Sequence record: KP682386.1 | DNA: 64,000 bases | Source: Escherichia phage PA36 | Strand: one strand, 5' to 3' | Shown here: positions 60,001-63,000 of the stretch, in pieces | Layout of the letters: each line of letters starts with the position of its first letter | Numbering within the stretch: position 1 is the stretch's first letter | Position numbers: made by a program

Positions 60001-63000
60001 CCCTGAAGGACGGGGTTTTACAGCGCACCGGATAAGATTCGGTGTTTTGTTGAAAAATACTGTGATAACAAACAGAAAACCCGTCAGTAAGACGGGCTTA
60101 GCAAGCTGGGACGGTTACTTTAATAATTTCAGTGCCTTTACATCCACTTCAACACTGCTCAGGTCTTTATCAATTTCACCCTCAATTCTTACTTTGTCTT
60201 TCGGAGAAACATTCTGACCGGCCCATATGCTGTCATCGATATCCGTGACAATTGTCCCGCTATTGTCACGAAACTCATAACGTTCATCACCCACTTTTTT
60301 AACGATGCTCCCTTCAAGGATAACCCATGCATCATCCTTCAGTTCTTTTGCCTGCGCTACTGTTGAACGCTCTGCTTCAGGCCCTTGGAAACCGCCCTGC
60401 TGTGCAAAAGCGCCAAAAGACACACCAGAAATAAGTGCTGCAATCAATACCTTTTTCATTCATAGTCCTCTTTCAGAGATGAACATTCAAACAGCATTTT
60501 CAGTATGGTAAAGCGCGGGTGCGTTGAGGATGCCTGACACATCAGAGGTGGCGGGAGATTACTCCCCCGCTTGGTCTCTTACTTCTCAGATTCGTAGTCT
60601 ACGAAGACAGCGACCTCCGTCTGACCGGTTCGGATTCGCACCTCGCAGAGGTCTTTCCTCGTTACCAGTGCCGTCACTATGACGGTTAAACAGATGACGA
60701 TCAGGGCGATTAACATCGCCTTTTGCTGCTTCATAGCCTGCTTCTCCTTGCCTTTCGGCACGTAAGAGGCTAACCTACATGTGTTCAGCATGGATTGAGC
60801 CTCAGATTAATGTTAAGCGTCTTGCCGGACGCGTAATGTTAACTGGGGCTTTTCTCTATCTGCCGTTGGTGTTCATGCCCGAGGCAGATAGCCTCAAGCA
60901 CCCGCAGCAATTCTACTTAACTCTCCTTTTCCCGCAAACCGTTTTTATCTCCAGCGACAAATCGAATACACAACCAGCACCACCGCCATTACTGTTCCTA
61001 CATTTGCGAATGCTTCAGGCCAGGTCATTGATTCACCTTCTGCTCAATATTTTTAAGGTCATTTTCCGCATACAGTATTGCAGTTCTTGCTGCCCGCAAC
61101 CGTGCTTTGGTGTTCTTTTCTTCACGCTCGAGGCTGGCAACAGATTCTCGGAGCTGATCGTGTCTGTTATGAAGCTGTCTAATCTCTCTCACCACAGCCT
61201 CACCATCGTTCGCACACCGCAGAACATACTGAAAAGGGTCCACAACACATCCGCACTGCAAGCACAGGATAACGTGATCCTGTTCATGAACCTCAATGGC
61301 CCGATGCTTACAGCTCTGTTGTGTGTAGTTTTTTCTGCCAGTTACTGTAATGTTCAGCAGCTTCTCTTCATCGCGCTTTGGCTGCACCAGTGTGATGATA
61401 TTATCGCCTTCATTTTCCATCAGTTCACCTCCTGCGGCGGTTCTGGTAGCGGCATCCAGTGTGACGGTTTCCACGACGCACCAGGAATTATCCACCCATC
61501 ATTAGCGTCAGGATGCCCCGGGATGTAAGTCGCCCACTTCATTCGCCAGTCACCTTTCCTGTCAAACTCCACGGCAACAAGAACGGCTGTTTTGGTATCC
61601 GGCATTCGCTCACTACAACTTATCCAACCATCCGGAGTTACCGGAGAGTTGCCAGACAGCGCATTCTGCAACCGTTCCAGCTTAACGTATTCCTGAACCC
61701 TGTTTCCGTCGCACGCCTGAAGCCATTGCTCAGCCTTTTGCGCATCAGTGTGAAAGGCACAAGTGCGACCGTCATCAAATTGCATTTCGTAGAGGTTAGC
61801 AATCTGTTCAAACTGCGTGTGTGGCAACTTGTAAGTTTGGCTTACGAGTTCGGCTTCCAGTTCTGCTATGCGCTTCTCTGATGCTTCAAGTAACGCCTGC
61901 TTATCGCGTAGCGCTTCTTCCAGTTCAGCAACATGGCATTCACTATCAATAAGGTTGTTCTCTGCTGCTCCCAGCTCAACTCTCAGCTTCCCAACCGTAA
62001 GCGCAATCTCCTCGTTCTCCTGGTCGCGGCGTTTGATGTATTGCTGGTTTCTTTCCCGTTCATCCAGCAGTTCCAGCACGGTAGCCGGGTTAGCCTCTGC
62101 TATGAATTCAGCGTTGCATAAGCCTGAGCATCTGTTTCAACCAGGCAGTTAACATGACATTCTGCAATCACGCCACCGGGTTCTCCTTTCCATTTTTGGC
62201 AAACAAAAACTCCTGTTAAATTGCCGTGCTGGTTAACAGATGTATGCCCTACGATGTAGCTTCCTTTAGTTGCTTTCTCTGCCTTTTCACGCAGTGCCTG
62301 ATAGTCAATCTTGCTCATTTTTCTCTTCACTCCGGTATACAAGGATTACTACGCCCCCTCTGCTAATTGCGCGAGCTGGATCCCCTGGTTCCATGCCGTC
62401 AATACCGAAGGCTTCGAAAAATGCATCTATTGCCTTTTGGCGTTGCTCCTGCTTACGGCGTTTATTCCATTTTTTCATGAACAACAGTGACAGCCATCGT
62501 CCGCTGCAGAACATGATGTAGAAATAACCAAGGAGCGCTAGGCCGGTGTTCAGGGCTGTATCGATCGTTATCGTGGTGTTGATGTTCACTTCACACCTCT
62601 CTGTTTGTTGATAAGTTCAATATCCTGCTGGCAACTGGCGCAAGCTCTGCATCCACGAACAGCCAGGCGTCGCCGCTCATCTATCGGATCGCCACACTCG
62701 CAACAATGAGTAGCAGATGGGGCATTACTATCGGATTTGTATTTTTGCAGGGAGAGATTGCGCTGCAATTCTTCGATTTCAGCGGCGTTGTCGATGATAT
62801 CTGCCATTTTCCTTTCCTTCAGGCATGAAAAAAGGAGCCGAAGCTCCTTTGGTTTTAGAATTCGAATTGCCTTGCCCGCAGGCTTTTCAGCATTGGTCTG
62901 GCCCGCTGAACTACGAAACTCGACTGGTCAAGCCGTGCCGCCTCTCTCAGTAGCACATCTCTGTTCTTCGTCACCATGTAGATGGTCTCAAACGCAATGT

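Follow-up and report, generated by a model that had tools for sequence, protein, structure and literature searches.

The hok loci of plasmid R1, of the Escherichia coli chromosome and of 933W/Sp5-type Stx phages are the described systems closest to the right-end genes of Escherichia phage PA36. The R1 hok/sok locus (parB) shares with hokW a Hok peptide, an overlapping mok frame, a Sok RNA directed against the region of the mok start, a tac/fbi fold-back, a protective 3' hairpin and the involvement of RNase III; it differs in that R1 Hok is only 44% identical to HokW at the protein level (PMC8621323), that mokW, unlike R1 mok, lies in the hokW frame, and that R1 hok is plasmid-borne and activated by plasmid loss, whereas hokW resides in a prophage and is activated by induction. 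An in-frame mok, forming an N-terminal extension of hok, is also found at the E. coli hokC/gef-mokC locus, which is chromosomal and matches hokW less well at the DNA level (~74%). MokC and MokW also have a similar Mok leader (MLNTCR...). The hokD (relF) gene in the Qin cryptic prophage of K-12 shares with hokW a location in a lambdoid prophage, but DNA homology runs only from the hok Shine-Dalgarno (SD) sequence through fbi: hokD is without leader, mok or sok, has relBE upstream instead, differs in its flanks on both sides, and is followed directly after fbi by a strong terminator and then by rem rather than by a BOF gene.

For the Sakai prophage Sp5, HokW was shown experimentally to be a small inner-membrane toxin, and the SokW RNA was detected and found to neutralize HokW when expressed from its own promoter, in a partly RNase III- and Hfq-dependent manner (PMC8621323). 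Upon RecA-dependent prophage induction, SokW vanishes and HokW accumulates in the inner membrane ~1 h ahead of the endolysin, and phage release is ~2-fold higher with the hokW-sokW locus than without it (PMC8621323).

The window analyzed here, a 64,000-nt stretch of phage PA36 (KP682386.1), is a 933W/Sp5-type Stx2 phage, distinguished from 933W and Sp5 by an IS629-like insertion carried elsewhere in the window. An assignment to phage PA27 was rejected, as the insertion sequence sits at another place in PA27, the right end of which (56600-64000) is identical to that of PA36. Across 1.5 kb (59600-61100), the sequence is 100% identical to 933W and many Stx phages, and the sole differences from Sp5 are at 60217 (synonymous, within the BOF gene) and 60944 (upstream of the promoter), such that PA36 and Sp5 share an identical hok/mok/sok segment and an identical BOF protein. 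The mokW, hokW and sokW features are already annotated in the 933W and VT2-Sakai records. We thus regard the region as very probably the hokW-mokW-sokW type I toxin-antitoxin locus of these phages with a YgiW-like periplasmic OB-fold gene downstream (Table 1). Because hokW-mokW-sokW is known and experimentally tested in 933W/Sp5-type phages, the locus is ordinary and not new, and the observation as first made, of a hokD-like toxin gene beside a BOF-family gene, adds nothing beyond the annotation of and publications on 933W and Sp5. One small point does go beyond the literature searched, namely that hok and this short BOF gene always travel together as one compact unit.

Table 1. Features of the hokW-BOF region and of the second hok-type locus in the PA36 window.
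Feature	Position	Strand	Basis or remark
Putative hokW/mokW promoter	60910..60938	-	Read from sequence
hokW mRNA leader	60729..60903	-	Rfam RF01794 match, same strand as hok
mokW	60579..60791	-	70-aa ORF in hokW frame, N-terminal extension; annotated in 933W and VT2-Sakai
hokW	60579..60734	-	51-aa Hok/Gef membrane toxin; Pfam, phrog_251, HokD identity
3'-UTR hairpin GCGGGGGAGUAAUCUCCCGCC	60550..60570	-	Formed in MFE folds
fbi (fold-back inhibitory) element CCUCAACGCACCC	60517..60529	-	Pairs with 5' tac in MFE
hok-BOF spacer, 57 nt	60460..60516	-	No terminator-like hairpin with T-run
BOF/YgiW-family periplasmic OB-fold protein (predicted), 114 aa	60115..60459	-	Pfam, NCBIfam, 1NNX, phrog_1230
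Intrinsic terminator after BOF, AAGCCCGTC-TTACT-GACGGGTTT then TCTGTTTGTT	60067..60099	-	Marks end of conserved module
sokW promoter	60748..60776	+	-35 TTGCCT, 17-nt spacer, -10 TAACCT; read from sequence
sokW antisense RNA, 71 nt	60783..60853	+	misc_RNA annotation in 933W and VT2-Sakai
Second, divergent hok-type locus downstream of lom	46317..46671	+	Pfam, tac/fbi-like ends

Both protein-coding frames lie exactly where the sequence-only reading had placed them. The hokW peptide matches Pfam HOK_GEF (PF01848) with 81.1 bits (gathering score 22, E 4e-23, all 42 profile positions) and phrog_251 in PHROGs (E 1e-32), E-values which, as for the match of the BOF protein to 1NNX below, are far beyond chance. 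The near-identity to HokD/RelF given for the toxin in the sequence-only reading holds, with 47 of 51 residues identical to K-12 HokD (92%), including all of residues 1-44; the differences fall within the last seven, where HokD ends in TAYEPEE and HokW in VDYESEK. The hok frame is uninterrupted and is preceded by an SD of its own (AAGGAG, 60749..60741, minus strand), and the mokW SD, GAGG, lies 8 nt upstream of the mok ATG within 60805..60797. A disrupted hok frame, or one without ribosome-binding site or mok, had been named as the outcome that would overturn the toxin assignment; instead, a mok frame with SD, a Sok antisense RNA and tac-fbi closure are all present. The near-identity to HokD also raises the question of whether hokW has decayed into a relic without function, as have the hok loci on the K-12 chromosome, since the K-12 hokD locus was reportedly regarded as inactive by Pedersen and Gerdes in 1999, and some database records name hokW “RelF inactive antibacterial toxin.” However, hokW retains promoter, leader, mok, sok and fbi, whereas homology to hokD does not extend upstream of the hok SD, and toxicity and regulation are established for the Sp5 locus, which has the same sequence. 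The toxicity and antisense-RNA checks proposed in the sequence-only reading have already been done, with positive results, on this same Sp5 sequence (PMC8621323), and these published assays refute the relic, to which we assign next to no probability.

At the RNA level, the putative hokW promoter combines a -35 element TTTGCG/TTGCGG (60938..60932) with a -10 element TAGAAT (60915..60910) located 6 nt upstream of the mRNA 5' end. The leader matches the RF01794 covariance model over its entire length (113.5 bits, gathering score 59, model positions 1-157 of 157) and holds the tac element (60903..60892), a ucb-like box, the mok SD and the Sok target. In the MFE structure of the 404-nt RNA (-158.8 kcal/mol, z -8.0), all 12 tac bases are paired with fbi, with one bulge, and both G's of the mok SD are paired with an upstream CC (positions 56-57); the tac-fbi pairing persists in the MFE structure of an 836-nt RNA extended through BOF. 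By analogy with R1 hok (hok feature list from PMC9841398), the 3'-UTR hairpin would correspond to the terminal stem-loop protecting processed hok mRNA. The tac/ucb switch of R1 was not reproduced in the MFE structure of 3'-truncated hokW RNA, in which the SD stayed paired and tac made a local hairpin. In silico, the hokW mRNA is predicted to follow the canonical hok design, with an in-frame mok, a GAGG SD paired to an upstream box, a 12-bp tac/fbi helix and a 3' hairpin. On the opposite strand, SokW folds (-29.9 kcal/mol, z -4.95) into a single-stranded 5' tail over the mok start region followed by a long hairpin (terminator) and a U-run, and the -10 of its promoter is, judging by primers YO-421/422, the element mutated in the published “pro-less” construct (PMC8621323).

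PA36 carries two hok-type loci, as the sequence-only reading had also stated: the 46-aa ORF at 46466..46606 exceeds the Pfam HOK_GEF gathering score as well (33.2 vs. 22), and is annotated in other phage records as “MokW-like host killing” or “small toxic polypeptide.” At this second locus, the 5' end (46317..46330) is tac-like and a 3' element (46657..46671) fbi-like, and the two keep their complementarity using different bases from hokW; a candidate Sok-like antisense gene lies on the minus strand (promoter 46460..46431, hairpin 46403..46365), and no mok ORF was found. Around the hokW-BOF pair, the ORFs at 59847..60035 (no Pfam match) and 61025..61495 (sub-threshold Pfam matches only) each fall in a PHROGs family of unknown function, and a 31-aa fragment (59687..59782) suspected to be a Panacea-domain remnant was dropped after Pfam gave nothing.

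The neighbor of hokW was correctly read as a BOF/YgiW-type OB-fold protein with a signal peptide. It scores 113.7 bits against Pfam BOF (PF04076, cut-off 25.8), 136.4 bits against NCBIfam stress_OB_fold (NF033674, cut-off 35) and 110.8 bits against TIGR00156 (cut-off 108.15), and matches the E. coli YgiW structure 1NNX over residues 18-111 (E 3e-29), so that an OB fold is predicted; it is not a YdeI equivalog (NF007471, 63.7 bits, cut-off 179). Its N-terminus, MKKVLIAALISGVSFGAFA/QQ, has by eye the form of a typical Sec signal (MKK, hydrophobic core, AFA/QQ), is encoded by ~60459..60403 and aligns with the signal peptides of YgiW homologues, implying a periplasmic location. Relatives sharing this signal-peptide, periplasmic OB-fold organization include YgiW of E. 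coli (VisP in Salmonella), YdeI/OmdA and SipA of V. cholerae, and the best BLASTP segment is 55% identical to an E. coli protein named YgiW/YdeI family (P0047). The PA36 protein is nonetheless ~15 residues shorter, has a single GGF motif instead of two after the signal peptide, and is phage-borne and always located downstream of hok rather than beside qseBC. Members of the BOF family have been connected with H2O2, Cd and antimicrobial-peptide tolerance, with SipA binding antimicrobial peptides in the periplasm and YgiW/YdeI interacting with porins (PMC6370654). By analogy with YgiW, YdeI and SipA, the PA36 protein most likely acts in the periplasm in envelope stress or peptide binding.

How tightly this gene is tied to hok emerges from its distribution. 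The short BOF gene occurs in 553 E. coli records (550 genomes), every one of which also contains the hok-BOF junction; among viral contigs of IMG/VR, hok lies 117-121 nt upstream of BOF in all 45 informative loci. The pair recurs with this spacing in at least four different contexts, and homology among the 933W-type, nin-region, chromosomal and plasmid copies spans from the hok promoter, which is kept in all copies, to the terminator after BOF, where homology between differing contexts stops. With respect to the DUF968 (ydfU) gene and Q, the nin-region copies lie where hokD lies in Qin. Upstream context failed as a discriminator of module locations, as Ea22/DUF551-type genes recur upstream in both contexts. 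Between fbi and BOF, no terminator-like site was found in any module copy, the first terminator being the one that follows BOF, and the spacer holds the BOF SD (AAGAGGA, 60472..60465, minus strand). This organization is unlike that of R1 hok, and also unlike that of hok-only loci (K-12 hokD, PPompW), in which a hairpin and T-run come directly after fbi.

Could hok and BOF still be unrelated neighboring morons at the phage right end, with BOF under a promoter of its own and no link to hok? The hok cassette (60507..60960 in the window) does occur without BOF in many phages and ~590 plasmids, and locus L016 has hok without BOF in the same nin context. DNA conservation, moreover, is ~95% across hok and only ~85% across BOF, which suggests differing selective constraints on the two genes. 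Yet this BOF subtype directly follows hok wherever it was seen, the spacing is maintained across contexts, and a terminator separating the two genes is absent, so that we consider mere adjacency unlikely. A consensus promoter scan returned nothing on the minus strand, but it also missed the predicted hokW promoter, which is below its threshold, and the sokW promoter tested in PMC8621323; the scan is therefore uninformative about a BOF promoter, which may possibly lie inside the 57-nt spacer or inside hok.

Since BOF sits between fbi and the only terminator, it would be transcribed by read-through that starts either at the hok promoter or at a point farther upstream. The hok-BOF unit would be oriented with N-antiterminated early transcription in both phage contexts: in 933W-type phages, whose right-end gene cluster shares its strand with int, xis and the pL operon, pL transcription would cross attP after excision and enter hok-BOF, and in other lambdoid prophages pR transcription through the nin region would read it. 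Transcription of this kind would oppose that of sokW, and the loss of SokW upon induction could result from it. The R1-type activation by 3' exonucleolytic processing would not apply as described, because an extended transcript would bury fbi internally. We see evenly balanced chances that hok and BOF form one transcription unit expressed by read-through and that early transcription could remove SokW in this way. The fuller proposal, in which hok-BOF is an operon-like mobile module with BOF partnering Hok, and N-antiterminated read-through silences sokW by transcriptional interference and so makes Hok an induction-coupled accessory lysis factor, appears improbable as a whole.

The statement that neither gene has a phage housekeeping function was only partly right: induction of the prophage brings on HokW synthesis, and HokW raises phage release twofold. 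A role of hokW-sokW mainly in prophage maintenance (post-segregational killing) or abortive infection rather than lysis, with BOF as a stabilized lysogenic-conversion fitness gene, would fit the “prophage maintenance” wording of the original 933W and VT2-Sakai annotations, the retention of the full R1-like RNA design, and the plasmid stabilization and reduced T4 plating of R1 hok/sok, as these are cited in PMC8621323. In Sp5, however, deletion left lysogen growth unaffected, HokW protein was seen only on induction, and the measured effect was on lysis timing with a 2-fold change in phage yield (PMC8621323), which leaves a primary maintenance or defense role tentative and somewhat doubtful.

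Whether BOF also acts on the toxin is a separate question. The C-terminus of Hok is placed in the periplasm in the Gef/Hok literature. As a functional partner of HokW in that compartment, the BOF protein might bind the periplasmic tail or act on the membrane lesion and damaged envelope, and so tune the timing or extent of killing, either as a second, protein-level safeguard or as a lysis-timing helper. The strict BOF-hok linkage, the peptide binding of SipA and the porin interactions of YgiW/YdeI are all consistent with such a partnership, as is the enrichment of the VFVDYESEK tail variant in hok-BOF modules. Strict co-variation of this tail with BOF was rejected, however: the tail is present in 622 genomes vs. 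550 for BOF, L016 carries it in a nin context that lacks BOF, and at one IMG/VR locus BOF accompanies a hok with the TAYEPEE tail. As hok with the same C-terminal tail occurs in L016 without BOF, BOF is dispensable for hok. In the Sp5 experiments, HokW toxicity and Sok neutralization likewise both worked without an intact BOF gene, Sok being sufficient as antitoxin from a clone ending inside the BOF signal-peptide coding region (primer YO-433, PMC8621323). We therefore hold a direct partnership to be very unlikely.

The read-through arrangement bears on the published delta-hokW-sokW::km mutant, which retains a cassette just upstream of BOF, so that its phenotype could be partly polar; if hok-BOF is a module or BOF a partner of Hok, that phenotype may partly reflect lost BOF expression.

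Beyond the phage itself, a literature search linking hok and ygiW found only a HUS case-control study, a 2025 GWAS in which a “ygiW_2” and “mokC-like” gene pair tracked with HUS (PMC11950266). These are probably two adjacent genes on Stx-associated prophages, so that the pair would mark linkage and not an interaction between virulence factors; the hok-BOF linkage may thus explain this signal. The side result on hok and BOF could matter modestly. Should BOF indeed be expressed from, or act with, the hok unit, the phenotype published for the mutant would have to be checked again for polar effects, the question of what removes SokW on induction would gain a directly testable answer, and one of the most thoroughly studied type I toxin-antitoxin designs would gain a protein-coding passenger or partner in STEC prophages.

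The gene pair at the right end of the phage, read from sequence alone as a hok-like toxin beside a BOF/YgiW-family gene (window 60115-60734), proved correct in all details. The 51-aa ORF (hokW) covers the entire Pfam HOK_GEF profile (81.1 bits, E 4e-23), and its product is identical to K-12 HokD at 47 of 51 residues, including all of residues 1-44. For the 114-aa ORF, the hits are Pfam BOF at 113.7 bits, NCBIfam stress_OB_fold at 136 bits and, among solved structures, YgiW 1NNX (E 3e-29); it narrowly exceeds the TIGR00156 cut-off, but scores under that of the NCBIfam YdeI equivalog. 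In alignment, its N-terminus (MKKVLIAALISGVSFGAFA followed by QQ) lines up with the signal peptides of YgiW homologues; the phage protein is ~15 residues shorter than chromosomal YgiW proteins, with a gap after the signal peptide.

Features of the two hok-type loci (window coordinates)
Feature	Position	Strand	Basis
hok promoter (plausible), TTTGCG/TTGCGG then TAGAAT	ends 6 nt upstream of 60903	-	sequence reading
hok mRNA leader	60903..60729	-	Rfam RF01794, entire model, 113.5 bits vs gathering 59
mokW, in-frame 19-codon extension of hokW, GAGG Shine-Dalgarno (SD)	60791..60579	-	ORF reading
hokW ORF, 51 aa, MKQQKAMLIALIVICLTVIVTALVTRKDLCEVRIRTGQTEVAVFVDYESEK	60579..60734	-	ORF reading
Stable 3' hairpin	60570..60550	-	predicted fold
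BOF ORF, 114 aa	60115..60459	-	ORF reading
SokW, long hairpin and U-run	60783..60853	+	fold z -4.95
sokW promoter, TTGCCT-17-TAACCT		+	sequence reading
Hok-family ORF, second locus, 46 aa	46466..46606	+	Pfam 33.2 bits vs 22; phrog_251 E 3e-24
Sok-like antisense elements, second locus	46460-46365	-	promoter TTGACT-18-TAACCT, 16-bp hairpin, short U-run

The RNA features of hok/sok, as listed in PMC9841398, were compared with the locus one at a time. A 404-nt RNA from 60903 to 60500 has a folding energy of -158.8 kcal/mol (z -8.0), and its predicted fold has the mok SD base-paired to a C-rich box further upstream, while 12/12 bases of the 5' end (tac, GGGUGCUUGAGG) pair with the 3' fold-back element (fbi, CCUCAACGCACCC, 60529..60517). 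The 5' tail of the antisense RNA SokW is predicted to be free and spans the mok start. Minimum free energy folding did not recover the refolding predicted for the 3'-processed hokW RNA. Compared with the K-12 Qin prophage locus, DNA homology extends only from the hok SD to just past fbi; in K-12, relBE takes the place of leader, mok and sok, and a strong terminator directly follows fbi. Because the homology is so confined and relBE replaces the regulatory part, the comparison indicates that hokW is the intact form of the cassette and hokD a truncated relative of it.

Both gene interpretations are supported. The locus is already known and experimentally characterized: toxicity and the antisense RNA, which the sequence-only reading had proposed to check, were studied by Takada et al. 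(2021; PMC8621323) on the Sp5 (VT2-Sakai) locus, which has the same sequence; their primers match the window. There, HokW induction halts growth, and sokW expressed from its own promoter blocks this arrest; protection is lost when the sokW -10 is mutated and returns with sokW in trans, with a partial contribution of RNase III and Hfq. When the prophage is induced with mitomycin C or heat, SokW RNA disappears and HokW-FLAG is found in the inner membrane, both RecA-dependent and ~1 h ahead of endolysin. A delta-hokW-sokW::km prophage lyses ~40 min late and releases about half the phage (PMC8621323). This mutant retains its kanamycin cassette directly upstream of BOF, so the marked deletion may be polar on BOF. 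PMC8621323 discusses neither polarity nor the downstream ygiW-like gene, and mokW and the second hok-like locus go unmentioned as well. In the HokW-3FLAG construct, the 3' UTR was replaced, including part of fbi (PMC8621323).

The suggestion that the prophage carries two type I toxin loci is likewise supported at the sequence level. The divergent second locus (window 46317-46671, +) lies just downstream of lom; its leader matches RF01794 over the full length, below threshold (35.6 bits, E 2e-6), and 365 nt of its RNA (46316..46680) are predicted to close 5' to 3' through GGGUGCC.../...GGCACCC (z -6.5). The antisense -10 is the same as that of sokW, and no mok frame is recognizable at this locus. 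Other records label the ORF a small toxic polypeptide, and no functional study was found in the literature searched.

The 1.5 kb spanning hokW-BOF is 100% identical in 933W, Stx2-converting phage I and dozens of O157 Stx2 phages, as well as in at least 97 complete E. coli genomes. The 933W and VT2-Sakai records annotate mokW, hokW, sokW (antisense RNA) and a "YgiW/YdeI family" protein, and only two bases of 60050-60960 differ from Sp5, at 60217 (synonymous, inside BOF) and 60944 (upstream of the hok promoter). The window opens with the attL core of 933W, int being encoded on the minus strand, and its final 7.4 kb equals phage PA27 at every base. Genome ends are near-identical to 933W, unlike the immunity and replication region (8526-25660), which is mosaic and alignable only in patches (96-99% identity). 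An IS3-family, IS629-like element (48862-50171, 25-nt inverted repeats), containing an ALIL frameshift pseudoknot (49197-49313), splits an ORF that is intact in PA27, whose own insertion sequence is located at another site. The Ead/Ea22 Pfam domain is divided over adjacent ORFs (62100-62342 and 61420-62079, -) where 933W has one annotated 900-nt Ea22-like gene. An Rfam sRNA-Xcc1 match (63525-63613, -; 69.1 bits vs gathering score 53) sits close to the attR end and upstream of the gene for the antirepressor.

We found no description of the hok-BOF pairing in the literature searched. Without BOF, the hok cassette (window 60507..60960) is present in many other phages and ~590 plasmids, mostly of ~95 kb, but the short BOF gene was never found without hok in the sets searched. 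Among 5,426 complete E. coli genomes, BOF (at least 80% coverage) and the hok-3'/BOF-5' junction each occur in exactly 553 records from 550 genomes, and in IMG/VR hok lies 117-121 nt upstream at 45 of 47 BOF loci, the other two contigs being uninformative as they end before the hok position. The pair occupies at least four contexts. In 933W-type phages it sits at the right end, and in other STEC lambdoid prophages in the nin region (DUF551, hok, BOF, 90-aa ORF, DUF968, RusA), the latter context being commoner among IMG/VR contigs (35 vs 11). It also occurs in the chromosome, flanked by a cytochrome c peroxidase gene and mrp-metG (BOF 81% identical), and on a plasmid (117-aa BOF variant). In alignments of 933W-type, chromosomal and nin-region copies, homology runs from the hok promoter to the post-BOF terminator (window 60945 to 60070), and a comparison of nin-region with plasmid copies gives this downstream limit again.

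A terminator-like hairpin with T-run was seen in none of 58 hok-BOF spacers examined. Among hok-only loci, PPompW, like hokD, has a strong terminator right after fbi and L013 a degenerate one, while L016, a prophage whose nin-region hok is without BOF, shows a degenerate terminator of the hokD type where BOF and its terminator would be. L016 is thus an "empty" state of the BOF site. From this layout, the chances appear evenly balanced that BOF, placed after fbi and before the terminator, is transcribed as part of the hok unit. Three chromosomal copies (L005, L007, L008) carry Cys31 to Gly in hok with BOF intact, Cys31 being kept in all other Hok copies compared; there, the toxin may be decaying while BOF is kept. 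In nin-type, chromosomal and plasmid copies (L005 3379-3483, L009 530-634, L017 2909-3013), hok is preceded at ~250 nt by a conserved hydrophobic 34-aa ORF, which is missing from the window.

As for function, YgiW is required for H2O2 and cadmium tolerance, YgiW and YdeI bind porins, and SipA of V. cholerae is a periplasmic binder of antimicrobial peptides (PMC6370654). By analogy, the BOF protein is most likely a periplasmic envelope-stress or peptide-binding factor advantageous to the lysogen. That it is a direct partner of HokW is an unsupported possibility: Hok and Sok function without intact BOF in published plasmid assays (PMC8621323), and hok also occurs without BOF, as in L016. A 2025 Irish STEC case-control GWAS associated "ygiW_2" in combination with "group_5720/mokC_2" with HUS and regarded them as possibly interacting genes (PMC11950266). 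These are probably the adjacent hok/mok-BOF pair of STEC prophages (window 60115-60791), in which case the HUS signal would be a linkage marker.

Takada et al. left open the cause of SokW loss on induction (PMC8621323). Every right-end gene upstream of hokW (AntA antirepressor, DksA-type zinc finger, DUF4752, Ea22/DUF551, L0139) lies on the same strand as the left-end int, xis and pL operon, so that pL transcripts running across attP once the phage has excised would reach hokW in the sense orientation; in nin-region copies, pR transcripts would likewise enter hok in sense. Such read-through would meet sokW transcription head-on and could be why SokW is lost on induction in a RecA-dependent manner. 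To a known locus, the analysis adds two modest, testable points, the conserved hok-BOF module and the read-through idea.
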